64,000 nt of DNA from Eledone cirrhosa (lineage: Eukaryota): contig OZ024764.1 in the NCBI GenBank assembly GCA_964016885.1, forward strand, positions 3,162,001 through 3,226,000. Direction: 5' to 3'. The notes beneath the pieces were generated by a model. The model saw only the letters and a program-made list of their open reading frames with translations, was not told the origin of the DNA and searched no databases. Below, in pieces: positions 7,131 to 64,000 of this stretch. Every line of letters begins with the position of its first letter. The stretch's first letter is position 1. The position numbers and the translations under genes were made by a program.

Positions 7131-7171
<41 letters not shown>

Positions 7172-7178
<7 letters not shown>

Positions 7179-7460
7179 AGATCAAAAGATGGTTAAAGGA
7201 GTTCAATATATTTTATTATGCGCATTTCAAAAACAAACATCATCAAACAATAATATTTGTGTTTTCATCAGATAAAACAGGAGAACATGATATGAAGGCT
7301 AAAAAAAACACTTGTTGATAGTGCAGTTTTAAATCAACATATCTCCTTTAACCATCTTTTGATCTTATATTATGCATACTCCAGTCCCACAAACTGTAGA
7401 GTGCTTCTTATCCGATATCTGCATTGCTTTATTGTACTACAATAAAACTCACCTCCTACA
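7172..7460 (-). mobile_element. Penelope-like non-coding element with inverted repeat, inserted in (TA)n
   Basis: ~30-bp inverted repeat at 7172-7201 / 7343-7372, contains a hammerhead motif, flanked by (TA)n; related pieces at ~15020-15140 and ~50400-50430. Confidence 0.6.
7210..7278 (-). ncRNA. Type I hammerhead ribozyme motif
   Basis: GUUUUAU-CUGAUGA-[stem II ~13/14 pairs incl. GU]-GAAA-UGCGCA-UA^AUAAAAU; stem I paired; palindromic stem III; predicted cut between 7217 and 7216. Confidence 0.78.
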
Positions 7461-14982: not shown

Positions 14983-15017
<35 letters not shown>

Positions 15018-18000
15018 AGAAGAAATTAAAAGATGGTTAAAAATGTTCCATATATTTTATTATGCGCATTTCAAAAACAAATATCATCCGGGGACGATAA
15101 ATGCGTTCTCATCAGATAAAATAAGGTAACATGATATGATGCCTTAAAAAAAATATAAATTGTAATTACATTGTTATTACAACGAAGAAAAATTATTTCC
15201 AGAATTTAGTTATGGTTTATCAAGATCTCTGTTTTTATATTACTAACTTCATTAATATTCTAGACATCACTTTCCTCCAATATATTGTCTATCACCTTAT
15301 ATCTCAAATATTCAACATGGCTTCCCTCCAATATTTTATCATCATCTCTTCCTCCTCCTTCTTTAGTCATCCCTCCATTGAATGTAAAGCATTCATTTTG
15401 CTTTATCTAATGACTAAAACATATGCAGCTCACCCCACCTACATAACTGTAGATTCCTCCGATAACTGGGAGTAGTGCCAACACATTTTCGAATTGTTGA
15501 TCAACTGCGAAGTTACTGGTGTTTACCACAACAAGGTCATCTAATTAGACTGATAATCACCACATGAGTTACTGCTTATCATGAGACAAGCAGGCTTTTT
15601 GTCGAAGCTTACTCCTCTAGATGTCACCTGTTCTGCTAGACTATCTTATGATAGCCATATCAGAGACTCTAGATGTCACCTATTCTGCTAGACTATCTTA
15701 TGATAGCCATATCAGAGACTCTAGATGTCACCTATTCTGCTAGACTATCTTATGATAGCCATATCAGATGCTCTAGATGTCACCTGTTTTGCTAGACTAT
15801 CCTATGATAGCCATATCAGATGCTCTAGATGTCACCTGTTCTGCTAGACTATCTTATGATAGCCATATCAGATGCTCTAGATGTCACCTATTCTGCTAGA
15901 CTATCTTATGATAGCCATATCAGATGCTCTAGATGTCACCTGTTCTGCTAGACTATCTTATGATAGCCATATCAGATGCTCTAGATGTCACCTGTTCTGC
16001 TAGACTATCTTATGATAGCCATATCAGAGACTCTAGATGTCACCTGTTCTGCTAGACTATCTTATGATAGCCATATCAGATGCTCTAGATGTCACCTATT
16101 CTGCTAGACTATCTTATGATAGCCATATCAGAGACTCTAGATGTCACCTATTCTGCTAGACTATCTTATGATAGCCATATCAGATGCTCTAGATGTCACC
16201 TATTCTGCTAGACTATCCTATGATAGCCATATCAGAGACTCTAGATCTGGCCTGTTTTGCTAGACTATCTTATGATAGCCATATCAGAGACTCTAGATGT
16301 CACCTGTTCTGCTAGACTATCTTATGATAGCCATATCAGAGACTCTAGATGTCACCTGTTCTGCTAGACTATCTTATGATAGCCATATCAGAGACTCTAG
16401 ATGTCACCTGTTCTGCTAGACTATCTTATGATAGCCATATCAGAGACTCTAGATGTCACCTGTTCTGCTAGACTATCTTATGATAGCCATATCAGATGCT
16501 CTAGATGTCACCTATTCTGCTAGACTATCTTATGATAGCCATATCAGAGACTCTAGATGTCACCTGTTCTGCTAGACTATCTTATGATAGCCATATCAGA
16601 TGCTCTAGATGTCACCTGTTCTGCTAGACTATCTTATGATAGCCATATCAGAGACTCTAGATGTCACCTGTTCTGCTAGACTATCTTATGATAGCCATAT
16701 CAGAGACTCTAGATGTCACCTGTTCTGCTAGACTATCCTATGATACCATATCAGATGCTCTAGATGTCACCTGTTCTGCTAGACTATCTTATGATAGCCA
16801 TATCAGAGACTCTAGATGTCACCTGTTCTGCTAGACTATCTTATGATAGCCATATCAGAGACTCTAGATGTCACCTGTTCTGCTAGACTATCTTATGATA
16901 GCCATATCAGATGCTCTAGATGTCACCTGTTCTGCTAGACTATCTTATGATAGCCATATCAGAGACTCTTGATGTCACCTATTCTGCTAGACTATCTTAT
17001 GATAGCCATATCAGAGACTCTAGATGTCACCTATTCTGCTAGACTATCTTATGATAGCCATATCAGATGCTCTAGATGTCACCTATTCCGCTAGACTATC
17101 TTATGATAGCCATATCAGATGCTCTAGATGTCACCTGTTCTGCTAGACTATCTTATGATAGCCATATCAGAGACTCTAGATGTCACCTGTTCTGCTAGAC
17201 TATCTTATGATAGCCATATCAGAGACTCTAGATGTCACCTGTTCTGCTAGACTATCTTATGATAGCCATATCAGAGACTCTAGATGTCACCTATTCTGCT
17301 AGACTATCTTATGATAGCCATATCAGAGACTCTAGATGTCACCTGTTCTGCTAGACTATCTTATGATAGCCATATCAGATGCTCTAGATGTCACCTATTC
17401 TGCTAGACTATCTTATGATAGCCATATCAGAGACTCTAGATGTCACCTGTTCTGCTAGACTATCTTATGATAGCCATATCAGATGCTCTAGATGTCACCT
17501 ATTCTGCTAGACTATCTTATGATAGCCATATCAGATGCTCTAGATGTCACCTATTCTGCTAGACTATCTTATGATAGCCATATCAGAGACTCTAGATGTC
17601 ACCTATTCTGCTAGACTATCTTATGATAGCCATATCAGAGACTCTAGATGTCACCTATTCTGCTAGACTATCTTATGATAGCCATATCAGATGCTCTAGA
17701 TGTCACCTATTCTGCTAGACTATCTTATGATAGCCATATCAGAGACTCTAGATGTCACCTGTTCTGCTAGACTATCTTATGATAGCCATATCAGAGACTC
17801 TAGATGTCACCTGTTCTGCTAGACTATCTTATGATAGCCATATCAGATGCTCTAGATGTCACCTGTTTTGCTAGACTATCCTATGATAGCCATATCAGAG
17901 ACTCTAGATGTCACCTATTCTGCTAGACTATCTTATGATAGCCATATCAGAGACTCTAGATGTCACCTATTCTGCTAGACTATCTTATGATAGCCATATC

Positions 18001-32724: not shown

Positions 32725-32950
32725 AAAAAAGATGAAATCAAAATTGCAACTGAGGTCTTTTTAAGTATATTTATTTGTTTCCTTTACCAGTTTCACAGTT
32801 CTTATGCTTTTCCATAGTAGAATTGAGATGTAGGGTTTGTGCCTTCATCTCAATTCTACTTTTGAAAAGCACAAGAACTGTGAAACCGAAGGAACCAAAT
32901 AAATATTCTTATAAAGACTCCAGTTGCATTTTCGATTTCATCTTTTTTCC
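32725..32950. repeat. ~225-bp imperfect palindrome
   Basis: AAAAAAGATGAAATC...GTTTCACAGTTCTT...GTAGAATTGAGATG mirrored by CATCTCAATTCTAC...AAGAACTGTGAAAC...GATTTCATCTTTTTT. Confidence 0.8.
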
Positions 32951-33697: not shown

Positions 33698-33853
33698 TCT
33701 CTCTCTCTATATATATATATATAAGCAAGGGATATTTAATTTGTTGGTAATTCAACAAATATATTTATAACAGATTCGAAGCACTCAACAGATTTTCTGG
33801 AGTATAATATCAATGATATTAATAAATGGAAACTATATTTATAAAACCATATT

Positions 33854-33914
33854 TATTTCATTATACATATTTCAAGGGTACCAAAATTTTGGTACGATCT
33901 CATCAGATAAAATA
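33854..33914 (-). ncRNA. Type I hammerhead ribozyme motif
   Basis: UAUUUUAU-CUGAUGA-GAUC-GUACCAAAAUUUUGGUAC-CCUU-GAAA-UAUGUA-UA^AUGAAAUA. Confidence 0.68.
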
Positions 33915-34049
33915 CAAAATTTGTTTATAAATAGTGACATACCCAATAAACCAGACCTTATCGGTTCTGTTTGGATAGTCTATCCAAACAGAACTTCAAC
34001 CGTTAAGGTCTGATTCCTGGATATGTCACTGTTTATAAAGCAAACTTTG

Positions 34050-34110
34050 TATTTTATCTGATGAGAGCGTACCAAAGTTTTGGTACCTTTGAAATATATA
34101 TAATAGAATA
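34050..34110 (+). ncRNA. Type I hammerhead ribozyme motif
   Basis: UAUUUUAU-CUGAUGA(34058)-GAGC-GUACCAAA-GU-UUUGGUAC-CUUU-GAAA(34091)-UAUAUA-UA^AUAGAAUA. Confidence 0.75.
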
Positions 34111-34162
34111 AATATGGTTTTATAAATATAGTTTCTATTTATTTAATATCATTGATATATGT

Positions 34163-34195
<33 letters not shown>

Positions 34196-34236
34196 CGATA
34201 TTAAATAAATGGAAACTATATTTATAAAACCATATT

Positions 34237-34302
34237 TATTCTATTATATATATTTCAGGGATATCATATTAAAAATATGGTATGCCTTCATCAGACAAAA
34301 TA
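34237..34302 (-). ncRNA. Type I hammerhead ribozyme motif
   Basis: UAUUUUGU-CUGAUGA-AGGCAUACCAUAU(UUUUA)AUAUGAUAUCCCU-GAAA-UAUAUA-UA^AUAGAAUA. Confidence 0.77.
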
Positions 34303-34452
34303 CAATATAAACAGTCTTATAAATAGATAGATTTGACATACCTTACAACTTCAACTTCCATTTAAAAAGTTGACTACCAAATCAACTTTTTAAATGGAAG
34401 TTGAAGTTGTAAGGTATGTCAAATCTATCTATTTATAAGACTGTTTATATTG

Positions 34453-34518
34453 TATTTTGTCTGATGAAGGCATACCATATTTTTAATATGATATCCCTGA
34501 AATATATATAATGAAATA
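34453..34518 (+). ncRNA. Type I hammerhead ribozyme motif
   Basis: CUGAUGA at 34461, stem II 11/13 pairs, GAAA at 34499, UAUAUA, UA^, stem I with GU wobbles. Confidence 0.78.
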
Positions 34519-34794
34519 AATCTGGTTTTATAAATATAGTTTCCATTTATTTAATATCGTAAATATACTCCAAATACTTGTTGAGTGCTTTTATATCAGT
34601 TATAAATATTTACTCGTTGTAACCCAACAATTTAAATATAACTTTGCATATATATATATATATATATATACAAGGCGAAGCTTAGTAAAATCGAAGCTTT
34701 GGCCGTGGGCAAGCAAAGTCGACCTACAATAGGAATGAGTTAGTGAAGCACTCAATAAGGGTAGGTCCTTAGAGTAATAACATACGTTTAAATA

Positions 34795-34836
<42 letters not shown>

Positions 34837-34950
34837 ATATATTAATTGTTTCTACTTTAGGCACAAGGCCAGCAATTACCCAGTGCATTACTGGTACTTT
34901 ATTATATACAATATATTAATAAATGGAAACTATATTTATAAAACCATAAT

Positions 34951-35016
34951 TATTTTATTATATATATTTCAATGGCGACCAAGGTAAATTATGGTGCGCT
35001 TTCATCAGATAAAATA
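34951..35016 (-). ncRNA. Type I hammerhead ribozyme motif in a one-armed Penelope-like copy (34905-35140)
   Basis: UAUUUUAU-CUGAUGA-AAGCGCACC...GGUCGCCAUU-GAAA-UAUAUA-UA^AUAAAAUA; perfect 8-bp stem I. Confidence 0.72.
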
Positions 35017-35140
35017 CAGATTTATAAAATTCATTTATTAATATATTGTATATTTACTCCACTAACTTGTTGAGTGCTTTATATCAGTTATAAAAATGTT
35101 TATGCTTGTTGAATCCCAACAAATTAAATATAACCTCTGC

Positions 35141-35180
<40 letters not shown>

Positions 35181-35574: not shown

Positions 35575-35626
<52 letters not shown>

Positions 35627-35812
35627 TAAGTTAATATGCCCACGGGTACTAAGTACCCCTGGAAATATATAGGTTGTCTATGATACAGGGTTGTTCAATG
35701 GTATTAATTTGACATACCAGAACTATAATATTGAGATAAGCAGAACAATCAAAATTCAAACAATTTTTTAAAATAAATTAAAAAATATAATTTAAATATT
35801 TACTTACTCCAG

Positions 35813-35923
35813 TGCTTTTACCGATCAGTTTCACAAAACATTAGAAATCCAAGGGACCTCGCTTCACAAAACATTAGAAATCCAAGGGACCTCCAATGGA
35901 AAAGTGAAGTTCATCAGAGAGCA
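35813..35923 (-). ncRNA. Hammerhead motif with an elongated stem II region (different family)
   Basis: UGCUCU-CUGAUGA-[~80 nt incl. ~33-bp direct duplication]-GAAA-CUGAUCGG-UA^AAAGCA. Confidence 0.5.
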
Positions 35924-36435: not shown

Positions 36436-36526
36436 TAATATATATATATATATATATATATACAATATATTAATAAATGGAAACTATATTTATAAAACCA
36501 TAATTATTTTATTATATATATTTCAA

Positions 36527-36716
36527 GGGGCGGTGAATTGGCAGTATCGGTAGAGGGTTGGACGCCATGCTTTCTAGCATAGTTACATCCCTTTACAGTC
36601 TGAGTTCAAATCCCGCCGAGGTTAACTTTGCCTTTCATCCTTACGGGGTCGATAAAATATAGTACCAGTAATGTACTGGGTTATTGCTGACCTTGTGCCT
36701 AAAGTAGAAACAATTA
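36527..36716 (+). mobile_element. Meta-domain SINE, full length
   Basis: Same family as 6738; flanked by the TSD-like pair TATATATATTTCAAG / TATATATAATTCAAG. Confidence 0.82.
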
Positions 36717-36779
36717 TATATAATTCAAGGGCTACCAAGGTAAATTATGGTGTCAATATTTATTTATAAAACAAATCTG

Positions 36780-36844
36780 TATTTTATCTGATGAAAGCGC
36801 ACCAAGAATGCCTTCGTTGCTCTTGAAATATATATAATAAAATA
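36780..36844 (+). ncRNA. Type I hammerhead ribozyme motif
   Basis: UAUUUUAU-CUGAUGA(36788)-AAGCGCA...UGCUCUU-GAAA(36825)-UAUAUA-UA^AUAAAAUA. Confidence 0.72.
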
Positions 36845-36884
36845 ATTATGGTTTTATAAATATAGTTTCCATTTATTAATATAA

Positions 36885-37113
36885 TAATAATAATAATAAT
36901 GAAATTATTGTGTAAAGTGCTCAGGTGCACTACAACTCGTCAATATAGTACATAGAATAATACACAAATGTCAGGGAAGTACATGTGTGTATGTGTTAGC
37001 TGTAGTGTTGGCGGATCTCGGGAAGCATGGAGGCCTTAAAGGATGCAGTGTCTCGACAGCTAACAACTGATGCAGGCAGTTTGTTCCATGCTTCAGCAAC
37101 TCTGAGCGTGAAA
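36885..37113 (-). mobile_element. CR1-type LINE 3' end (single copy of the 61-bp unit)
   Basis: Reverse complement of ~62920-63205; (ATT)n tail. Confidence 0.85.
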
Positions 37114-37201
37114 AAATTATATTGTGTATTTACTCCACACATTGTTGAGTGCTTTTATATCAGTTATAAAAAATGTTTAAGCTTGTTGAATCCCAACAAA
37201 T

Positions 37202-37249
<48 letters not shown>

Positions 37250-41350: not shown

Positions 41351-41499
41351 AAGTCAATAGACTAAAATTATACTTAGATTAACCCAGTGATTCTCAACTC
41401 CAGAGTTTAAGAATAATGTAAATAAAGTTGTTAAACGAAAATGACAGAGGTTTTTATGCATATACATATATATGCTTTGACGTCACCTTAAAAATAAAC

Positions 41500-43175
41500 G
41501 TAACCATGCCTCTCCTGGTCTTGATGGTGTTACGTACCTGCTTCTCAAACGTGGTGGGTACTTCCATCTACACCAGCTATCATGCTTCTTTCAATTCTGT
41601 CTGAACAACAGTGCTACTCCAGGACAGTGGAAAACTGCCAGTGTCATTCCTCTGTTCAAAAAGGGTGACCGTACATCACCTGTGAACTATCGTCCAGTCA
41701 GTCTTACTAGTTGCATTGCCAGACTGATGGAATCCTGTGTCAGAGAAACACTTTGGAACTTCTGGAACTCTCACAGTCTTATCCGGCCCTCGCAATTTGG
41801 ATTTATCCCTAACTCCAGCTGCTGTGATCAACTTATCAAGTTTCTTGAAGACATCACCCGGATCACTGATGGCGGCTCATGGGTGGATGTTGTTTACCTT
41901 GACTTTGCTAAAGCCTTCAATTCTGTGCCACACAAAAGACTTTTGCCAAAACTCTCTGCAATGGGTGTGAAGGATGATCTTTTTAAAAGGTTGAAGTCCT
42001 TCATTCTCAGTCGAAGAGAGGTAGTCACGGTTGTAGGACAGCATTCCTCACCGTATGAGATGTCATCTGGTGAACCACAGGGATTTGTTCTTGGCCCCCT
42101 TCTGTTTGTGGTATATATTAATGACATAGATGCCAAATTAAAGAATGCCACAGTACTGAAATATGCAGATGACATCAAGCTGTACCTTGAGATAAAAAGG
42201 ACAAATCCTGAACACTATAGATCTTGCTTGCAGTCTGACCTGGACACAATGCAACAATGGATCACGGACTGGCAACTCAAGCTAGCTGTGGACAAGTGCA
42301 CCACCATGCATTTTGGGAGCAAAACCCAGTGTCCACATACTCCCTCCACAGCACTAATATCAAGAAGTCTTCTTGTGAACGTGACCTAGGCATAACGGTC
42401 AGCAGTGATTTGTGTTGGACGAAGCACGTCTCTAAAATTGTCAAGAGGGCCAAGGCTGTCTTAGCATCACTCAGCAAGACCTTTGTCAGCCGCTCTCCAG
42501 ATATCTATTTAAGGCTGTACATGGCTATGGTGCGGCCACACTTGGAATTTGCATCACCAGTCTGGAACCCCTATCTTGCTCAGAACATTGACCTCCTGGA
42601 AACTGTTCAGAGACGTGCAACCAAGCGAATACCCTCCATCAGGCATCTACCAATCTCTGAACACCTTGCTTCCCTGGGCATGGATACATTGAAGCTCCGA
42701 CGTCTGGCAACTGACTTGGTAAACACCCACAAAATTATTAACCATCTTGCCAACAACAACCCTGAGCACCTTTTTGAATTCCATGTGTCTAACGCACGTG
42801 GACATGCCCACAAAGTCAGAAAACAGCACAGCTCCCATGAGTTTCGGAAACATTTTTTGACGCTTAGAGTTGCTGAAGCATGGAACAAACTTCCTGCATC
42901 AGTTGTTAGCTGTTGAGACACTGCATCCTTTAAAACCTCCATGGAACAAACTACCTGCATCAGTTGTTAACTGTCGAGACACTGCATCCTTTAAAACCTC
43001 CATACTTCCAGTAATTCACCAACACTACACCTAATGTTCCCCCTCCATACACACACACACATATATATCATGACTCATACACTATTCCCTGACATTTGTA
43101 CATTATTCTATCTACTATACATGCACCTTTGATGAGTTGTAGTGCACCTGAGCACTGTACACAATAATTTCATAA
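41500..43175 (+). pseudogene. 5'-truncated CR1-type LINE: reverse-transcriptase pseudogene + 3' UTR
   Basis: NYRPVSLTS, QFGF, YLDFAKAFNSV, GEPQGFVLGP, YADD, then RPHLEFASPVWNP and LETVQRRATK; frameshift in the A-run near 42321-42324; CGA>TGA stop at 42914. Confidence 0.92.
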
Positions 43176-43289
43176 TTTTTTTAATATATATATATATGTA
43201 TTTATGTATGCATATATATGTATGTGTTTGAGTATGTTGTATATATATATATGTGTGTGTATTTATGTATATACATGTGTATGTGTGAG

Positions 43290-44320: not shown

Positions 44321-44674
44321 GTATATATACATATACATACATACTTATATATACACACACACATTATATATATATATATATGTGTGTGTGTTTGTGTATA
44401 GTATAAGAGCACAGTCAGTAGAATTTAGTTTATTCAAGCTACATCTAATCCCTAAACATACATATATATATATATATATAAACGCACACACATATATATA
44501 TATATACATACATACATACATATATACATGCATATATACACACATATATACACACATATATATATACACACATATATATATACACACATATATATATACA
44601 CACAGTATGACAACACCATTATACAAATAAACTGTGTGAACATGTCAATATTTTCCTGTCTTATATTTCAAACA

Positions 44675-45994
44675 CACTACCACCACTACTACACCACCAC
44701 CACTACACCACCACCACTACACCACCACCACCACTACACCACCACTACTACACCACCACCACTACTACACCACCACCACTACTACACCACCACCACTACT
44801 ACACCACCACCACTACACCACCACCACCACTACACCACCACCACTACTACACCACCACCACTACTACACCACCACCACTACACCACCACCACCACTACAC
44901 CACCACCACCACTACACCACCACCACTACACCACCACCACCACTACACCACCACTACTACACCACCACCACTACTACACCACCACCACTACTACACCACC
45001 ACCACTACACCACCACCACCACTACACCACCACTACTACACCACCACCACTACTACACCACCACCACTACTACACCACCACCACTACTACACCACCACCA
45101 CTACACCACCACCACCACTACACCACCACCACTACTACACCACCACCACTACTACACCACCACCACTACACCACCACCACCACTACACCACCACCACCAC
45201 TACACCACCACCACTACACCACCACCACCACTACACCACCACCACTACACCACCACCACTACTACACCACCACCACTACTACACCACCACCACTACACCA
45301 CCACCACCACTACACCACCACTACTACACCACCACCACCACTACACCACCACCACCACTACACCACCACCACTACACCACCACCACCACTACACCACCAC
45401 TACTACACCACCACCACTACTACACCACCACCACCACTACACCACCACCACCGCCACCACCAACACGACCACTACACCACCACCACTACTACACCACCAC
45501 CACTACACCACCACCACCACTACACCACCACCACCACTACACCACCACCACTACACCACCACCAGAACCACTACACCACCACCACACCACCACCACTACG
45601 CCACCACCACTACGCCAGCACCACCGCCACCACCACACCACCACTACACCACCACCACTACACCAGCACCACTGCCACCACCAACACCACCACCACACCA
45701 ACACCACCACCACTACACCAGCACCACCGCCACCACCAACACCACCACCACACCACCACCACTACACCACTACACCACCACCACACCACCACCACTACAC
45801 CACCACTACACCACTACACCACCACTACACCACCACCACTACACCAGCACCACCACCACCACCAACACCACTACACCACCACCACTACACCAGCACCACC
45901 GCCACCACCAACACCACCACCACTACACCACCACCACACCACCACACCACCACTACACCACTACACCACTATGCCACTACACCACCACCACTAC

Positions 45995-46025
<31 letters not shown>

Positions 46026-49000
46026 CACCACCACTGCACCAGCACCACCAACACCACCACTACACCACCACCACTACACCACCACCACTACACCACCACC
46101 ACTACACCACCACCACTACACCACCGCCACTACACCACCACCACTACACCACCACCACTACACCACCACTACACCACCACCACTACACCACCGCCACTAC
46201 ACCAGCACCACCACCACCACCAACACCACTACACCACCACCACTACACCACCACCACTACACCAGCACCACCGCCACTACACCAGCACCACCACCACCAC
46301 CACCACCACTACACCACCACCACTACACCAGCACCACCACCAACACCACTACACCACCACCACTACACCACCACCACTACACCAGCACCACCGCCACTAC
46401 ACCAGCACCACCACCACCACCACCACCACTACACCAGCACCACCGCCACTACACCAGCACCACCACCACCACCACCACTACACCACCACCACTACACCAG
46501 CACCACCGCCACCACCAACACCACCACCGCTACACCATCACTACACCACCACCACACCACCACACCACCACTACACCACTACGCCACTACACCACCACCA
46601 CTACACCACCACTACACCACCACACCACCACTACACCAGCACCATCACCAACACCACCACCACTACACCACCACCACTACACCAGCACCACCGCCACCAC
46701 CAACACCACCACCACACCACCACCACCACACCACCACTACACCACTACACCAGCACCACCACCACCACCATACCACCACTACACCACTACACCACCACTA
46801 CACCACCACCACCACCACCACTACACCACCACCACTACACCACCACCACACCACCACCACACCACCACCACACCACCACACCACTACCACCACCACCACT
46901 ACACCACCACCACCACACCACCACCACTACACCACCACCACCACTACACCACCACACCACCACTACACCACCACCACACCACCACCACACCACCACCACA
47001 CCACCACACCACTACCACCACCACCACCACCACCACCACCACTACACCACCACCACTACACCACCACCACACCACCACCACACCACCACCACACCACCAC
47101 ACCACTACCATCACCACCACTACACCACCACCACCACACCACCACTACACCACCACCACCACACCACCACACCACTACCACCACCACCACTACACCACCA
47201 CCACCACCACCACCACACCACTACCACCACCACCACTACACCACCACCACCACACCACCACTACACCACCACCACCACACCACCACACCACTACCACCAC
47301 CACCACTACACCACCACCACCACCACCACCACTACACCACCACCACTACACCACCACCACACCACCACCACACCACCACCACACCACCACTACACCACCA
47401 CACCACCACTACACCACCACCACTACACCACCACCACACCACCACCACACCACCACACCACCACCACACCACCACTACACCACCACACCACCACTACACC
47501 ACCACCACCACCACACCACCACTACCACCACCACCACTACACCACCACCACCACCACCACCACTACACCACCACCACTACACCACCACCACACCACCACA
47601 CCACTACCACCACCACCACTACACCACCACCACCACCACCACCACTACACCACCACCACTACACCACCACCACACCACCACCACACCACCACACCACCAC
47701 CACACCACCACCACCACTACACCACCACCACTACACCACCACCACACCACCACACCACTACCACCACCACCACACCACCACCACCACCACCACCACCACC
47801 ACCACTACACCACCACCACCACCACCACTACACCACCACTACACCACCACCACCACCAACACCACTACACCACCACCACCACACCACCACACCACTACCA
47901 CCACCACCACTACACCACCACCACCACAACTACACCACCACCACCACCACCACCAACACCACTACACCACCACCACCACACCACCACACCACTACCACCA
48001 CTACACCACCACCACCACACCACGACTACTACACCACCACCACACCACCACCACACCACCACTACACCACCACACCACCACCACACCACCACCACCACCA
48101 CCACACCACCACCACCACCACACCACCACACCACCACCACACCACCACTACACCACCACACCACCACACCACCACCACACCACCACCACCACCACACCAC
48201 CACACCACCACCACACCACCACCACACCACCACACCACCACACCACCACCACTACACCACTACACCACCACCACTACACCACCACCACACCACCACCACT
48301 ACACCACCACCACCACACCACCACACCACTACCACCACCACCACTACACCACCACCACCACCACACCACCACCACACCACCACCACACCACCTCTACTAC
48401 ACCACCACCACACCACCACCACACCACCACTACACCACCACACCACCACTACACCACCACACCACCACTACACCACCACTACACCACCACCACTACACCA
48501 CCACACCACCACCACACCACCACTACACCACCACCACCACCACCACTACACCACCACACCACCACTACACCACCACCACCACCACCACCACCACTACACC
48601 ACCACTACACCACCACCACCACCACCACCACTACACCACCACCACACCACCACACCACACCACCACTACACCACCACCACCACCACCACTACACCACCAC
48701 ACCACCACTACACCACCACCACCACCACCACCACTACACCACCACCACCACCACACCACCACACCACCACCACCACCACCACTACACTACCACCACACCA
48801 CCACACCACACCACCACTACACCACCACCACCACTACCACCACTACACCACCACCACACCACCACACCACACCACCACTACACCACCACCACCACCACCA
48901 CACCACCACCACCACCACCACTACACCACCACCACCACACCACCACTACACCACCACCACCACCACCACACCACCACCACACCACCACTACACCACCACC

Positions 49001-49474
49001 ACACCACCACTACACCACCACCACACCACCACTACACCACCACCACACCACACCACACCACCACTACACCACCACCACCACCACCACTACACCACCACAC
49101 CACCACTACACCAGCACCGCACCACCACCACACCACCACACCACACCACCACCACACCACCACCACCACCACCACTACACCACCACCACACCACCACACC
49201 ACCACTACACCACCACCACCACCACCACACCACCACCACCACCACCACTACACCACCACCACCACACCACCACTACACCACTACCACCACCACCACACCA
49301 CCACCACACCACCACTACACCACCACCACACCACCACTACACCACCACCACACCACCACCACACCACCACCACCACCACACCACCACACCACACCACCAC
49401 CACACCACCACTACACCACCACCACCACCACTACACCACCACCACCACACCACCACTACACCACCACCACCACC
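44675..49474. repeat. ~4.8-kb degenerate (CAC/CCA/CTACA)n low-complexity array
   Basis: Almost only C and A on the plus strand; no stop codons arise, which produces the spurious 1673-aa ORF. Confidence 0.95.
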
Positions 49475-49534
49475 CTCACAGCCAAGGCAACAAGCCAGAG
49501 TCATCATTACTCACCCATAGAGACAGCCGGTGAT

Positions 49535-51870
<2,336 letters not shown>

Positions 51871-52064: not shown

Positions 52065-54880
52065 CAGGGAAAAGTGGATGTAAAATGCAAGGGTGGGACA
52101 GGTCCTATTCAGCACAGCATCTCCCACTTGTCACGGTCCTTCGTCATCTCCTCTGTGAACTTCGGTGATCTGAGGTCTGCTCTCACCACCTCCGCCCATG
52201 ATTTTCGTGGTCTTCCTCTACTGCGTCTTCCTTCTACTCGGATTTCTTGGCACTTCTTTACCCAGTGGTCATCCTCCGTGTAAATCACATGTCCATACCA
52301 TCTCAGTCTTCTGTCCCACACACTACAGTTTATCCCCCTTATACACAGTTTCTCTCTCAACACATCACATGTCCATACCATCTCAGTCTTCTCTCCCACA
52401 CACCACAACTTATCCCTCTTATACCCAGTTTCTCTCTCAACACATCACATGTCCATACCATCTCAGTCTTCTCTCCCACACACTACAACTTATCCCTCTT
52501 ATACCCAGTTTCTCTCTCAACACATCACATGTCCATACCATCTCAGTCTTCTCTCCCACACCACAACTTATCCCTCTTATACACAGTTTCTCTCTCAACA
52601 CATCACATGTCCATACCATCTCAGTCTTCTCTCCCACACCACAACTTATCCCTCTTATACACAGTTTCTCTCTCAACACATCACATGTCCATACCATCTC
52701 AGTCTTCTCTCCCACACACCACAACTTATCCCTCTTATACACAGTTTCTCTCTCAACACATCACATGTCCATACCATCTCAGTCTTCTCTCCCACACCAC
52801 AACTTATCCCTCTTATACACAGTTTCTCTCACAACACATCACATGTCCATACCATCTCAGTCTTCTCTCCCACACCACAACTTATCCCTCTTATACACAG
52901 TTTCTCTCTCAACACATCACATGTCCATACCATCTCAGTCTTCTCTCCCACACACCACAACTTATCCCTCTTATACACAGTTTCTCTCTCAACACATCAC
53001 ATGTCCATACCATCTCAGTCTTCTCTCCCACACCACAACTTATCCCTCTTATACACAGTTTCTCTCTCAACACATCACATGTCCATACCATCTCAGTCTT
53101 CTCTCCCACACACCACAACTTATCCCTCTTATACACAGTTTCTCTCTCAACACATCACATGTCCATACCATCGCAGTCTTCTCTCCCACACACCACAACT
53201 TATCCCTCTTATACACAGTTTCTCTCTCAACACATCACATGTCCATACCATCTCAGTCTTCTCTCCCACACCACAACTTATCCCTCTTATACACAGTTTC
53301 TCTCACAACACATCACATGTCCATACCATCTCAGTCTTCTCTCCCACACCACAACTTATCCCTCTTATACACAGTTTCTCTCTCAACACATCACATGTCC
53401 ATACCATCTCAGTCTTCTCTCCCACACACCACAACTTATCCCTCTTATACACAGTTTCTCTCTCAACACATCACATGTCCATACCATCTCAGTCTTCTCT
53501 CCCACACACCACAACTTATCCCTCTTATACACAGTTTCTCTCTCAACACATCACATGTCCATACCATCTCAGTCTTCTCTCCCACACCACAACTTATCCC
53601 TCTTATACACAGTTTCTCTCTCAACACATCACATGTCCATACCATCTCAGTCTTCTCTCCCACACACCACAACTTATCCCTCTTATACACAGTTTCTCTC
53701 TCAACACATCACATGTCCATACCATCGCAGTCTTCTCTCCCACACACCACAACTTATCCCTCTTATACACAGTTTCTCTCTCAACACATCACATGTCCAT
53801 ACCATCTCAGTCTTCTCTCCCACACACCACAACTTATCCCTCTTATACACAGTTTCTCTCTCAACACATCACATGTCCATACCATCTCAGTCTTCTCTCC
53901 CACACACCACAACTTATCCCTCTTATACACAGTTTCTCTCTCAACACATCACATGTCCATACCAACACAGTCTTCTCTCCTGTACACCACAACTTATCCC
54001 TCTTATACACAGTTTCTCTCTCAACACATCACATGTCCATACCATCTCAGTCTTCTCTCCCACACACCACAACTTATCCCTCTTATACACAGTTTCTCTC
54101 TCAACACATCACATGTCCATACCATCGCAGTCTTCTCTCCCACACACCACAACTTATCCCTCTTATACACAGTTTCTCTCTCAACACACCACATGTCCAT
54201 ACCATCTCAGTCTTCTCTCCCACACCACAACTTATCCCTCTTATACACAGTTTCTCTCTCAACACATCACATGTCCATACCATCTCAGTCTTCTCTCCCA
54301 CACACCACAACTTATCCCTCTTATACACAGTTTCTCTCTCAACACATCACATGTCCATACCATCGCAGTCTTCTCTCCCACACACCACAACTTATCCCTC
54401 TTATACACAGTTTCTCTCTCAACACATCACATGTCCATACCATCTCAGTCTTCTCTCCCACACACCACAACTTATCCCTCTTATACACAGTTTCTCTCTC
54501 AACACATCACATGTCCATACCATCTCAGTCTTCTCTCCCACACACCACAACTTATCCCTCTTATACACAGTTTCTCTCTCAACACATCACATGTCCATAC
54601 CAACACAGTCTTCTCTCCTGTACACCACAGCTTATCCCTCTTATACACAGTTTCTCTCTCAACACATCACATGTCCATACCATCTCAGTCTTCTCTCCCA
54701 CACACCACAACTTATCCCTCTTATACACAGTTTCTCTCTCAACACATTCACGCTGGGTCGTTCACGCACATCGACAATGCACATCCAACGGAGCATGCTT
54801 GCTTCATTTCTCTCCAGCTGTCGCATATCCTCTGTAGTTGCTGCCCTTGTCTCACTGCCATGCAACATCACACATCTCAC
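52065..54880 (-). mobile_element. RTE-clade LINE 3' fragment with an internal 78/80-bp array (~31 units, 52280-54745)
   Basis: MLHGSETRAATTEDMRQLERNEASMLRWMC...[27 protein letters not shown], then EGRRSRGRPRKSWAEVVRADL...DRDKW. Confidence 0.9.
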
Positions 54881-55020: not shown

Positions 55021-55134
55021 CCAAATGAGCCTTCTGACTTAAGAAGGATGTTAGACAGATTTTAGACTTTATATATATATATATATACATATATGATATT
55101 AAATAAATGGAAACTATATTTATAAAACCATATT

Positions 55135-55200
55135 TATTTCGTTATATATATTTCAGGGATATCATATTAACAATATGTTATGCCATCTTCAGACAAAATA
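55135..55200 (-). ncRNA. Type I hammerhead ribozyme motif (CUGAAGA core) in a one-armed element (55095-55240)
   Basis: UAUUUUGU-CUGAAGA-UGGCAUAACAUAU(UGUUA)AUAUGAUAUCCCU-GAAA-UAUAUA-UA^ACGAAAUA. Confidence 0.65.
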
Positions 55201-55468
55201 CAATATAAACAGTCTTATAAATAAATAGATACGACATACCTTTCAATCACCTTGCATTTGGGAGGTTGATTTGGCAGTAAAAAATATTGTGGACAGTTGT
55301 AAAAAGAAAGAGATAAAGAGAGAAAGAAAGAGAAACGAAGAAAAAGAAGAAATGCATGTGACTAAATAGAGGGATAAAGAGAAGAACTTCATGTAAAGAA
55401 ACAGAGAGAAATATATATAGAGAGAGGAAAATACATATATATATATATATATATATATGTGTATACAA

Positions 55469-57824: not shown

Positions 57825-58716
57825 ATATTCTAACCACATATCAGTAGTATCAGAGCTGTGATCTCTCAATTCAGATATTCTTTCCTGAGACATTCTAACC
57901 ACATGTCTGTAGTATCAGAGCTGTGATCTCCCAATTCAGAGATTCTCTCCTGAGACATTCTAATCACAAGTGTATAGTATCAGAGCTGTGATCTCTCAAT
58001 CCAGAGATTCTCTCCTGAGACATTCTAACCACATGCCTGTAGTATCAGAGCTGTGATCTCTCAATTTAGAGATTCTTTCCTGAGACATTCTAACCACATG
58101 TCTGTAGTATCACAGCTGTGATCTCTCAATTCAGAGATTCTTTCCTGAGACATTCTAACCACATGTCTGTAGTATCAGAGCTGTGATCTCTCAATTCAGA
58201 GATTCTTTCCTCAGACATTCTAACCACATGTCTGTAGTATCAGAGCTGTGATCTCTCAATTCAGAGATTCTTTCCTCAGACATTCTAACCACATGTCTGT
58301 AGTATCAGAGCTGTGGTCTCTCAATTCAGAGATTCTTTCCTGAGACATTCTAACCACATGTCTGTAGTATCAGAGCTGTGATCTCTCAATCCAAAGATTC
58401 TCTCCTCAGACATTCTAACCACATGTCTGTAGTATCAGAACTGTGATCTCTCAATTCAGAGATTCTTTCCTCAGACATTCTAACCACATGTCTGTAGTAT
58501 CAGAGCTGTGATCTCTCAATTCAGAGATTCTTTCCTCAGACATTCTAACCACATGTCTGTAGTATCAGAGCTGTGATCTCTCAATTCACAGATTCTTTCC
58601 TCAGACATTCTAACCACATGTCTGTAGTATCAGAGCTGTGGTCTCTCAATTCAGAGATTCTTTCCTGAGATATTCTAACCACATGTCTGTAGGATCAGAG
58701 CTGTGATCTCTCAATT
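57825..58716. repeat. 65-bp tandem array (~14 units)
   Basis: Unit TTCTAACCACATGTCTGTAGTATCAGAGCTGTGATCTCTCAATTCAGAGATTCTTTCCTGAGACA. Confidence 0.95.
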
Positions 58717-58922
58717 TATAGAAGTAGTGCTTCTTTAATCTGTTGTTCATAATTCCTCATAAATCTGTCTTTATGTCATAAACATAAATCTATTTGTTGG
58801 TAATAAAAGATATAAATATATATATGTGTGTGTGTGTAAAAGATAAACAGAAATAACAACACAATTGGTACAGTATATGGAAGGGATATATTAGGTTAAC
58901 GCTTGATATAGCAGGAAGAGGG

Positions 58923-58958: not shown

Positions 58959-59174
58959 AAATATATTTGTGCAGGTGCAGTGGCTATCGATAGATAGTAT
59001 TAGCAACTGGGAAGGCCAATGGAAACGTTGTTTCCTTGGTCCGATTTGACAAGCTCCACCCCATTTGTTAAGCGAATGAGGTCTGAGATCTTGTCAATCG
59101 ACTGTCATATATATATATATATACACAATATATTAATAAATGGAAACTATATTTATAAAACCATATTTCTCTTA

Positions 59175-59503
59175 TTAGTGGTTAGAGCATTGGCCTGGCA
59201 ATCGAAAGGTTGTGAGTTCAATTCTCAGACCGGGTGATGTGTTGTTTCCTTGAGCAAGACACTTTATTTCACATTGCTCCAGTTTACTCAGCTGTAGAAA
59301 TGAGATGATAGGGAGTGGGGTCCCTATCATTCCACACTAAAGTGGTCGTGGAGGTGCCACGGCAAAAAAGCACCCAACACTCACTGTAAATGAGGTTGGT
59401 GTTAGGAAGGGCATCCAGCTGTAGAAATCAAGCCAGAATCAGTTCCCGTCCCACCCTTGCAAGCAGGGAAAAAGCGGACTTAAAACGAAATGATGATGAT
59501 GAT
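59175..59503 (+). mobile_element. CORE-type SINE copy
   Basis: Match to the 5930 family, slightly 5'-truncated, (ATG)n tail. Confidence 0.87.
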
Positions 59504-59713
59504 TTCAAGGGCGAACAAGGTAAATTATGGTGTGCTTTCATCAGATAAAATATAAATTTGTTATATAAATAAATATTGACATACCCGGGAAAAAGACAAT
59601 CTCAACTGTTGAAATCTGCTGGATATATCTATCTATATCACTATCCAGCACATTTCAACCGTTGAGGTTGTCTTTTTTTCCGGGTATGTCAATATTTGTT
59701 TATAAAACATCTG

Positions 59714-59779
59714 TATTTTATCTGATGAAAGCGCACCATAATTTACGTTGGTCGCCCTTGAAATATATATAATAAAATA
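59714..59779 (+). ncRNA. Type I hammerhead ribozyme motif
   Basis: UAUUUUAU-CUGAUGA(59722)-AAGCGCACC...GGUCGCCCUU-GAAA(59760)-UAUAUA-UA^AUAAAAUA. Confidence 0.75.
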
Positions 59780-59913
59780 ATTATGGTTTTATAAATATAG
59801 TTTCCATTTATTAATATATTGTGTATTTACTCCACTAAACTGTTGAGTGCTTTATATCAGTTATAAAAACTTTTAAGCTTGTTGAATCCCAACAAATTAA
59901 ATATAACCTCTGC

Positions 59914-59963
<50 letters not shown>

Positions 59964-60217
59964 AAGCACACAGTCCATGTTGTGGTGCCACAATAAAAAG
60001 GACCCCCCAGTCCACACTGTAACAGGGTCAACATTAGGAAGTTTACCCAACTGTAGAAACTAAGCCAATATACAGTCAGATAAGCATGAAGTCTCCTGAC
60101 GCGACACATCATTCATAAGATGACAACTTGTCTAACCCAGGTAAGCATGGAAAAATAGACATTAAAAGATGATGATGATATACACACACATACACGTATA
60201 TATATATATATATATAT

Positions 60218-61417
60218 AATTGTTTCTACTTTAGCCACAAGGCCAGCAATTACCCCAGTGTATTACTGGTACTTTATTTTATCGACCCCGTAATAATTGT
60301 TTCTACTTTAGGCACAAGGCCAGCAATTACCCCAGTGTATTACTGGTACTTTATTTTATCGACCCCGTAATAATTGTTTCTACTTTAGGCACAAGGCCAG
60401 CAATTATCCCAGTGTATTACTGGTACTTTATTTTATCGACCCCGTAATAATTGTTTCTACTTTAGGCACAAGGCCAGCAATTATACCAGTGTATTACTGG
60501 TACTTTATTTTATCGACCCCGTATTAATTGTTTCTGCTTTAGGCACAAGGCCAGCAATTATACCAGTGTATTACTGGTACTTTATTTTATCGACCCCGTA
60601 TTAATTGTTTCTACTTTAGGCACAAGGCCAGCAATTACCCTAGTGTATTACTGGTACTTTATTTTATCGACCCCGTATTAATTGTTTCTACTTTAGGCAC
60701 AAAGCCAGCAATTACCCCAGTGTATTACTGGTACTTTATTTTATCGACCCCGTAATAATTGTTTCTACTCTAGGCACAAGGCCAGCAATTATACCAGTGT
60801 ATTACTGGTACTTTATTTTATCGACCCCGTATTAATTGTTTCTACTTTAGGCACAAGGCCAGCAATTACCCCAGTGTATTACTGGTACTTTATTTTATCG
60901 ACCCCGTATTAATTGTTTCTACTTTAGGCACAAGGCCAGCAATTACCCCAGTGTATTACTGGTACTTTATTTTATCGACCCCGTATTAATTGTTTCTATT
61001 TTAGGCACAAGGCCAGCAATTACCCCAGTGTATTACTGGTACTTTATTTTATCGACCCCGTAATAATTGTTTCTACTTTTGGCACGCACAAGGCCAGCAA
61101 TTACGCCAGTGTATTACTGGTACTTTATTTTATCGACCCCGTATTAATTGTTTCTACTTTTGGCACGCACAAGGCCAGCAATTACCCCAGTGTATTACTG
61201 GTACTTTATTTTATCGACCCCGTAATAATTGTTTCTACTTTAGGCACAAGGCCAGCAATTACCCCAGTGTATTACTGGTACTTTATTTTATCGACCCCGT
61301 AAAGATGAAAGCCAAAGTTAACCTCGGCGGGATTTGAACTCAGATCATAAAGGGCCGTAACTCTTTGTGCAAAGCATGGCGTCCGACCCTCTCCCGATAC
61401 TGCCAATCCACCGCCCT
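60218..61417 (-). mobile_element. Meta-domain SINE whose 3' 77 bp is tandemly expanded ~14x
   Basis: One head at 61417-61300; unit TTGTTTCTACTTTAGGCACAAGGCCAGCAATTACCCCAGTGTATTACTGGTACTTTATTTTATCGACCCCGTA(A/T)TAA. Confidence 0.9.
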
Positions 61418-62839: not shown

Positions 62840-63205
62840 TCGATTTCCATGTGTCTAACACACGTGGACATGCCCACAAAGTAAGAAAACAGCACAGTTC
62901 CCATGACTTTCGGAAACATTTTTTCACGCTCAGAGTTGCTGAAGCATGGAACAAACTACCTGCATCGGTTGTTAGCTGTCGAGACACTGCATCCTTTAAA
63001 ACCTCCATGGAACAAACTACCTGCATCAGTTGTTAGCTGTCGAGACACTGCATCCTTTAAGGCCTCCATGCTTCCCGAGATCCGCCAACACTACAGCTAA
63101 CACATACACACATGTACTTCCCTGACATTTGTGTATTATTCTATGTACTATATTGACGAGTTGTAGTGCACCTGAGCACTTTACACAATAATTTCATTAT
63201 TATTA
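62840..63205 (+). mobile_element. CR1-type LINE 3' end (two copies of the 61-bp unit)
   Basis: FHVSNTRGHAHKVRKQHSSHDFRKHFFTLRVAEAWNKLP; (ATT)n tail. Confidence 0.88.
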
Positions 63206-63227
63206 TATATATATCAAACAAATTTTG

Positions 63228-63289
63228 TATATTATCTGATGAGAGCGTACCAAAGTTTTTGGTACCTTTGAAATATATATAATAGAATA
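63228..63289 (+). ncRNA. Type I hammerhead ribozyme motif in a half-element (63215-63335)
   Basis: UAUAUUAU-CUGAUGA(63236)-GAGC-GUACCAAA...UUUGGUAC-CUUU-GAAA(63270)-UAUAUA-UA^AUAGAAUA; near-identical to 34050-34110. Confidence 0.7.
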
Positions 63290-63332
63290 AATATGGTTTT
63301 ATAAATATAGTTTCCATTTATTAAAATCATTG

Positions 63333-64000
<668 letters not shown>

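Follow-up and report, generated by a model that had tools for sequence, protein, structure and literature searches.

In the window (the whole 64-kb stretch of DNA that was analysed), seven loci belong to one family of short elements, family A, and two belong to a second, family B. Five of the family A loci (E1, E2, E3, E4 and E6) have the same layout, an inverted tail-less arm followed by a direct arm, a tail and a (TA)n run, and the other two (E5 and E7) are single arms without a tail. Three of these elements are clustered. The first, E1 (33725-34158), lies on the minus strand. Its tail of about 82 nt (33725..33806, minus) contains a TACTCC..GAGTGCTT hairpin and a terminal CAACAA hairpin and ends in (TA)n. 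The direct, pLTR-like arm (33807..33978, minus) carries a 5' hairpin, a donor-like GGTATGT at 33942 and a hammerhead motif at 33906-33862, and the inverted tail-less arm (33980..34158, plus) carries a hammerhead at 34058-34102. The outer arms of this palindrome (33807-34158) match at 92% over 106 nt. The second palindrome (34188-34567) has 186-nt arms that match at 98% and belongs to E2, which is made up of an inverted tail-less arm (34194..34373, minus; hammerhead 34294-34245), a direct arm with the fixed 5' start (34374..34561, plus; donor-like site at 34414, hammerhead 34461-34510) and a tail of about 87 nt (34562..34648, plus) that is followed by (TA)n. The palindrome loop of E2 is the first 8 nt of its direct arm. 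A previous reading of the DNA from sequence only had described two complete palindromes with one motif per arm; both palindromes are present, but they are not symmetrical, as the tail is on one side only.

Downstream of E2, a tail-only piece of a third family (34671..34792, minus) lies between two (TA)n runs. It has a TACTC..TTGAGTGCTT hairpin motif and no second match in the window. A truncated interspersed repeat (34843..34907, minus) is unrelated to the elements and is presumably SINE-like. The third element of the cluster, E3, consists of an inverted, 5'-truncated tail-less arm (34904..35028, minus; hammerhead 35008-34959) and a direct part with the last ~20 nt of the arm and the whole tail (35032..35141, plus), followed by (TA)n. 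The most plausible origin of the cluster is a series of insertions into the same (TA)n hot spot.

The remaining family A copies are dispersed. E4 (36457..37210, plus) has an inverted arm, a direct arm with a hammerhead (36788-36836), a LINE 3' piece (36885-37112) and then the tail; a SINE-like insert with a duplication of about 15 nt (36530-36712) splits the inverted arm. E5 (55093..55278, minus) is a single tail-less arm that reaches the fixed 5' start and has a hammerhead at 55192-55143 with CUGAAGA. E6 (59118..59914, plus) has an inverted arm broken by a SINE-like insert (59177-59501), a copy-specific 16-nt loop of simple repeat, a direct arm with a hammerhead (59722-59771) and a tail. E7 (63212..63337, plus) is a single, 5'-truncated tail-less arm with a hammerhead at 63236-63281. 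Four further copies had been proposed and all are found in position, but not all are intact, E4 and E6 having been interrupted later by other repeats. The copy given as 36462-36883 has one core only, its SINE-split left arm being cut inside stem II, and the element continues to 37210. Of the two motifs in the copy at 59125-59915, one is intact and the other SINE-broken, and the copies at 55095-55240 and 63215-63335 are single arms. In family B, B1 (7171..7459, plus) contains an inverted arm with a hammerhead (7271-7217, minus), a 31-nt direct remnant, a one-sided tail and (TA)n. It repeats the family A layout although its sequence is otherwise different. The second family B locus, B2 (15017..15140, minus), is a single tail-less arm with a hammerhead at 15115-15061. 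None of the copies seen contains an open reading frame.

In a descriptor scan of both strands of the whole window, 11 type I hammerhead motifs are detected. Five of these are within 33862-35008 (three minus-strand, two plus-strand), in agreement with the five motifs claimed within about 1.2 kb. Dinucleotide shuffles of the cluster region contain a mean of 0.003 motifs (maximum 1 in 1000 shuffles), and block/dinucleotide shuffles of the window contain a mean of 0.2 (maximum 2 in 200) against the 11 observed. All 11 motifs have CUGANGA, GAAA and an AUA triplet, as had been stated, with the core elements CUGANGA, GAAA and NUH in order and with stems I-III. Ten of the 11 have a stem III that is a perfect palindrome of 6 nt. 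The exception is the 33906 motif, which has UAUGUA, and the claim of a self-complementary UAUAUA in every motif is correct for the other motifs of the cluster. Nine motifs form family A (stem III UAUAUA), within which stem II separates three subfamilies, and two form family B (7271 and 15115; stem III UGCGCA, long stem II). The family B motifs and the third-family tail piece had been overlooked.

Pairing is retained in 97.9% of the 187 cells in the alignment of the 11 motifs, and 7 of the 17 pairs show two-sided (compensatory) changes. These changes come from few independent lineages and are found in 4 of 5 pairs of stem II, 2 of 4 pairs of the stem III palindrome and 1 of 8 pairs of stem I. 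Stem II stays paired while its sequence changes, as claimed, and covariation is supported in stems II and III. The covariation score is not reached by any of 500 shuffles; because the copies are related, which inflates this control, and the structure was drawn from the same sequences, the score is support and not a probability. A core more conserved than its flanks is seen when family A is compared with family B, but not inside family A, where the sequence 3' of the cleavage site is equally conserved. Among the best 150 of 200 Rfam matches listed, no hammerhead model appears and the palindromes have only microRNA-type hairpin matches, all sub-threshold, including a match of E2 to a plant microRNA model (E 3e-11) that is below the model's cut-off. 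A covariance model adds one SINE-broken motif, 59481-59556, and otherwise nothing convincing. An unpaired C occupies the fourth position of stem II (alignment column 23) in all 11 hammerheads of both families. It faces C or U after three stem II base pairs and possibly makes a tertiary contact.

When the core is held open, each of the three arms tried folds with a stem I of 8 bp that an internal loop separates from a 12-bp closing helix, at 0.4-2.4 kcal/mol above the free minimum. Closure of stem III in the monomer has a predicted cost of 1.7-2.9 kcal/mol, and the octamer is predicted to pair with a second copy. Cleavage of the family hammerhead is predicted to need either a dimer, formed through the palindromic stem III, or the help of a protein, which agrees with the dimer-type hammerhead proposed earlier. 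Dimer cleavage of small PLE hammerheads is reportedly the subject of a 2017 paper by Lunse et al. The energy pattern of monomer and dimer is the one that Cervera and De la Pena give for dimer-acting PLE hammerheads in the available part of their paper (PMC4209133). A transcript that spans the palindrome of E1 or E2 is predicted to form one hairpin (-209 to -277 kcal/mol), in which the hammerhead core is paired at a probability near 1 on both strands of both elements. The statement that transcription of either strand would give an RNA with a hammerhead in its 3' half is therefore true of the letters only. With the core buried in the read-through hairpin and the centres differing between copies, the palindrome makes an implausible ribozyme RNA and does not move as a unit, and cleavage is predicted only in an RNA that holds one arm.

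All arms stop at one of two fixed 3' points, which are about 85-90 nt apart. The tails are 82-93 nt long and occur at one end of the element only. All 10 of the tail-less arm ends examined stop a few bases before the start of the tail, one of them being cut there by a LINE insert. Reads of other copies leave the reference for (TA)n at 59809-59826, which is the arm/tail border. Families A and B have six tails; five of these stop at (T/A)(G/A)CA or TGC before (TA)n, and the sixth about 9 nt earlier. Each tail holds two hairpins, the terminal one being CAACAA. The pattern ACTC-N5-22-GAGTGCTT occurs seven times in the window against 0.08 expected, and the seven sites are the five family A tails, B1 and the third-family tail-only piece. 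A (TA)n run is at, or within a few bases of, 16 of the 17 outer ends shown, which supports the proposed targeting of (TA)n; the lone outer end without one abuts a LINE (TAA)n tail. Within (TA)n, target-site duplications are unreadable. The insertions end about 45 and about 140 nt beyond the cleavage site, and for this reason hammerhead cleavage as the source of the priming end (a 5' product ending in UAUAUAUA) was rejected.

These palindromic elements are very probably of PLE origin, as the sequence-only reading had proposed, on the basis of their layout, the one-sided tail and the two fixed 3' ends. In E1, E2, E3, E4, E6 and B1, an inverted, 5'-truncated pLTR adjoins a direct pLTR, and the hammerhead sits inside the pLTR-like arm. 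The insertions of endonuclease-bearing PLEs, in the available text of PMC3846280 and PMC8557442, have the same head-to-head inverted arm, one-sided tail, junction palindrome, 5' truncation, bias to (TA)n targets and hammerhead within the pLTR. Unlike these published insertions, the copies seen here have no open reading frame, a common 5' start, about 10^5 copies, arms apparently from different templates and a tail of about 85-90 nt, where 30-40 bp is the length usually reported (PMC8557442).

The hammerheads resemble the minimal PLE hammerheads of PMC4209133, as far as these are described in its available portions, in being type I with a long stem II and a palindromic stem III that is predicted to make them dimer-dependent. 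The same text describes hammerhead pairs of Schistosoma mansoni that lie on opposite strands, 100-700 bp apart. The motifs of the window differ in their 6-nt stem III palindrome and their 8-bp stem I with a 12-bp closing helix. They also differ from the consensus in that they lack the G10.1-C11.1 pair (A-U or G-U here) and a bulged base after A9, and invariably carry an unpaired C as the fourth position of stem II. Further similarities exist to Poseidon PAc of Anolis carolinensis (Frangieh et al. 2024, PMC11167929, in the sections available), which also has two tail-bounding fixed ends, an AC-rich outer stem-loop and AT-rich targets, and whose hammerhead is copied uncut, as would be the case here. 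In PAc, the reading frame begins inside the hammerhead and the tail is coding, whereas the corresponding region here has no conserved frame. The Hydra clade PLEs in supplementary files S1, S2 and S7 of Craig et al. 2021 likewise have (TA)n targets and a hammerhead 35-150 nt from the 3' end. A GCTC/ATTC..GAG-like hairpin is near the ends of five of their six new Hydra clade consensus sequences, a resemblance to the tail hairpin that was judged by eye and is a lead only. The Hydra clade stem III contains a 7-8 nt insert in place of a perfect 6-nt palindrome, the hammerhead of the octopus Hydra-1_Obim differs in sequence, and six probe motifs of families A and B have no match to a PLE end in the parts of that supplement compared.

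Six arms have a common start, ACTA(T)CC or CT(A/G)(T)CCA, which is 72-87 nt from the core on its 5' side. At another locus, a joint hits the same base as the arm start (59641), and in one contig of another organism the arm start directly follows simple repeat. The first bases of all six arms pair with GG(G/A)TA about 40 nt on, without two-sided change, and the resulting 5' hairpin is individually weak (z -0.7 to -2.6). The 5' end of B1 is also at the base of a hairpin. The motif GGTATGT, which we take to fit the splice-donor consensus, is at +36 to +43 from the start in five of the six start-reaching arms, where it overlaps the 3' strand of the hairpin stem. The window has 11 GGTATGT sites, six of them within family A arms, and family B lacks GTATGT. 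Neither a splice acceptor nor a spliced copy was identified, and the hairpin may be the sole reason why the donor-like letters are conserved. In Drosophila virilis Penelope, the available sources describe an internal promoter and an intron that starts 46 nt after the start site (PMC2377424) and ends at hammerhead helix I (PMC4209133). By this parallel, the 5' start of the arms is likely to be the transcription start of the pLTR. The fall in read depth at this point could be partly an effect of the edge and of divergence. Conservation in family A is highest in a stretch 3' of the cleavage site that has ATATAG as its last bases (59790-59801 and homologous sites). Were ATATAG a splice acceptor, the hammerhead would lie inside an intron of about 118 nt, which is speculative.

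Another origin of the copies, as 3' ends of a long autonomous PLE that were truncated at random on their 5' side, is unlikely; the common start would then mark a hot spot of stalling or fold-back in place of an RNA 5' end. Several arms are indeed cut elsewhere (E3, E4 and E7; joints 59656, 59682 and 59763-59782), and longer copies are possible among a further 326 loose ends. However, none of the six start-reaching arms in the window passes the start. This start is at the 5' base of the hairpin, past the point of an expected stall, while stall-like ends are at the 3' base (59682). Upstream of the hammerhead there is also no coding remnant with a frame conserved across subfamilies. Truncation of this kind alters the reading of the 5' end only and leaves the PLE assignment unaffected.

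The centres of the palindromes differ between copies. E1 has a 1-nt spacer in a 14-bp perfect palindrome (33965-33993), E2 has an 8-nt loop that belongs to the direct arm, E6 has its 16-nt simple-repeat loop at single-copy depth, and E3 and E4 have short microhomologies. Ten of the 15 joints listed (of 21) change strand, and they do so at different places. Head-to-head joints like that of E3 connect 59641 to 59828, 59656 to 59871, and 59682 to both 59714 and 59841. Other strand-changing joints are tail-to-tail over a short TA run, like E1/E2. The elements do not have equal terminal inverted repeats with a common interior, given the one-sided tail, the copy-specific centres and the varying joints. 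Because the centres and inversion joints are copy-specific, the palindrome is likely to be built at each insertion.

The two arms of one element are not always most closely related to one another. The inverted arm of E1 differs from E7 at 3 of 109 sites and from its own partner at 7 of 109, and it has three diagnostic changes in common with E7. The direct arm of E6 differs from E3 at 2 of 54 sites and from its own partner at 5 of 54. In E2, the arms have only three aligned differences before the arm end, two of which are family-wide GA/AG alleles. Since family-wide alleles differ within arm pairs, the comparison in these three elements favours separate RNA templates for the two arms, although the difference in E2 could come from gene conversion by the adjacent E1 arm.

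PLE junction palindromes are read as the product of self-priming in the available text of Arkhipova et al. 2013 (PMC3846280), and a fold-back of this kind is a further explanation. One cDNA would prime itself to form the inverted arm, and later mutation and gene conversion would diversify the arms of what would still be a PLE insertion. The arms of E2, which are 98% complementary about an 8-nt loop, and the perfect 14-bp central palindrome of E1 are consistent with it. A fold-back from one cDNA cannot, however, give E3 or B1, in which the inverted arm is much longer than the direct part. Joints also connect positions that are not neighbours, for example 59641 with 59828 and 59682 with 59841, and different family-wide alleles occur on the two arms. 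Taken together, this makes fold-back a poor candidate for the inverted arm.

A non-LTR retrozyme, in which successive hammerheads cut out a circular RNA, is a very improbable source. The animal retrozymes of PMC7229834 and bioRxiv 10.64898/2026.07.22.740005 are, in the portions available, short and non-coding with a type I hammerhead and are proposed to be PLE derivatives, and the unit of about 275 nt and low GC content found here are like theirs. They are head-to-tail tandems, while the elements here are head-to-head pairs or single arms. No head-to-tail tandem is present in the window, which speaks against the previous label 'retrozyme-like', no tail-to-start joint is among the 15 joints listed of 21, and insertions end past the cleavage site and not at it. 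A MITE-like DNA transposon with a captured hammerhead, moving as a whole palindrome into TA target sites, would account for the short, non-coding elements, long inverted repeats, TA flanks and very many copies, but this reading (and the earlier label 'MITE-like') is largely refuted by the unequal ends, copy-specific centres, varying joints, single arms, tail-only pieces and covarying RNA fold.

The formation of the elements by double-primed copying of an RNA leader, in which the reverse transcriptase-endonuclease of a PLE copies the 5' leader of an RNA from both nicks in (TA)n, is probable. In the available text on PAc, the protein, predicted to be a dimer, acts on AT-rich DNA by cutting and extending both strands; its reverse transcription begins at two internal, tail-bounding sites in an AC-rich stem-loop, and the RNA that it inserts is uncleaved (PMC11167929). 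By analogy with this Anolis Poseidon, the PLE enzyme would nick both strands of a (TA)n run; copying from the outer site at one nick would give the tailed arm, and copying from the inner site at the other would give the tail-less arm. Both cDNAs would run towards the 5' end of the RNA, stop there or earlier, and fuse head to head, with a short microhomology or a small fold-back as the link. The RNA would be copied with its hammerhead uncut. A start near the RNA 5' end would result in short products with a fixed far end and no reading frame. The template would be either the mRNA leader of an autonomous element or an RNA of about 275 nt made from earlier stubs by an internal promoter, and the two are about equally probable. 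An RT/GIY-YIG partner is absent from the window, in which the one Pfam RT match among five open reading frames scanned looks like a LINE protein.

It is doubtful that the unit of about 275 nt is itself a self-propagating non-coding RNA, a SINE-like Penelope passenger at about 10^5 copies that is delivered as a dimer to both nicks. Each arm would keep an internal promoter, and a stub would fire outward from its centre to give two one-arm RNAs. These would pair through the palindromic stem III, and the dimer would bring two different templates to the two nicked strands. If so, the hammerhead would be a dimerisation device for double-primed insertion, and the two tail hairpins would be an RT-binding signal common to three families.

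One arm and tail (59626-59920) was compared with 4 of the 15 sequencing runs listed. In run X1, 6297 contigs fit this query. The summed depth reaches 3.1 million on the conserved arm and 8.4, the single-copy depth, on the loop of E6. The resulting ratio of about 4 x 10^5 is not a copy number, according to the tool's own warning, but it agrees in order with 11 arms per 64 kb if the genome is assumed to be gigabase-sized. The family is thus present at roughly 10^5 copies, which upholds the high copy number proposed before. In run X13, 28,991 of 12.47 million raw reads fit the query, and the family is present in two other organisms (59 and 3 contigs). None of the 40 variants shown, of 90, falls in CTGATGA, GAAA or the cleavage site. 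Two A to G variants on the 3' side of stem I (59774 and 59775) are wobble-compatible, each at about a quarter of the depth. A stem III variant at 59767 makes up 1.8% in X1 and is dominant in X13, where few loci supply most reads. Metagenome contigs contain no exact copy of a 28-nt family motif, and viral contigs contain no match to the hammerhead pattern. The eight matches to a looser pattern in metagenome contigs all lack stems by eye and look like chance, and no relatives were found in either set.

The layout and the ribozyme type of the elements are already in print, and no new system is presented here. How PLEs make inverted ends and what their hammerhead does are stated to be open questions in the available parts of PMC8557442 and PMC11167929. 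With about 10^5 short copies that have subfamily alleles and a fixed start and end, a count of insertions with arms from different RNAs is feasible, and such a count would separate two-template priming from fold-back. Double-primed leader copying also offers a possible reason for the large excess of short pLTR stubs over full elements, in that copying begun near the RNA 5' end would run off after a few hundred bases. Palindromic stubs of this kind are easily mislabelled as MITEs or microRNA hairpins. No description of the family was found in the literature covered, which excludes most subscription journals. The repeat types of the window suggest an octopus host. In the accessible text of PMC13282606, PLEs make up 6.83% of the O. 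vulgaris genome in 190 families, and for this reason the family is probably already part of the automated O. vulgaris repeat library (Zenodo), or may be in Repbase/Dfam.

Several other repeats are present in the window. An unclassified piece at 35626-35900 follows a (TA)n run. It has no hammerhead core; a GGGTACTAAGTACCC hairpin, GGTATGTC on the minus strand at 35718 and the remnant TACTCCA-GTGCTTT are present in it, and it is possibly a decayed relative. An unrelated, imperfect palindrome of about 200 nt (32739-32936) lies directly upstream of the cluster; it has a microRNA-type Rfam match below the cut-off, and no hammerhead was found in it. The LINE 3' piece at the arm/tail border of E4 (36885-37112) is 99.5% identical over 201 nt to a second piece, 63006-63206, that abuts E7, and both have a relative in the LINE remnant at 41481-43180, which bears an RT (Pfam RVT_1, E 3e-34). 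A tandem array at 60211-61300, with about 14 units of about 77 nt, is derived from the 3' end of the SINE-like repeat that interrupts E4. Long minisatellite and simple-repeat arrays (for example 57850-58720, 52174-54837, 44456-49549 and 15600-16500) account for nearly all long open reading frames in the window.
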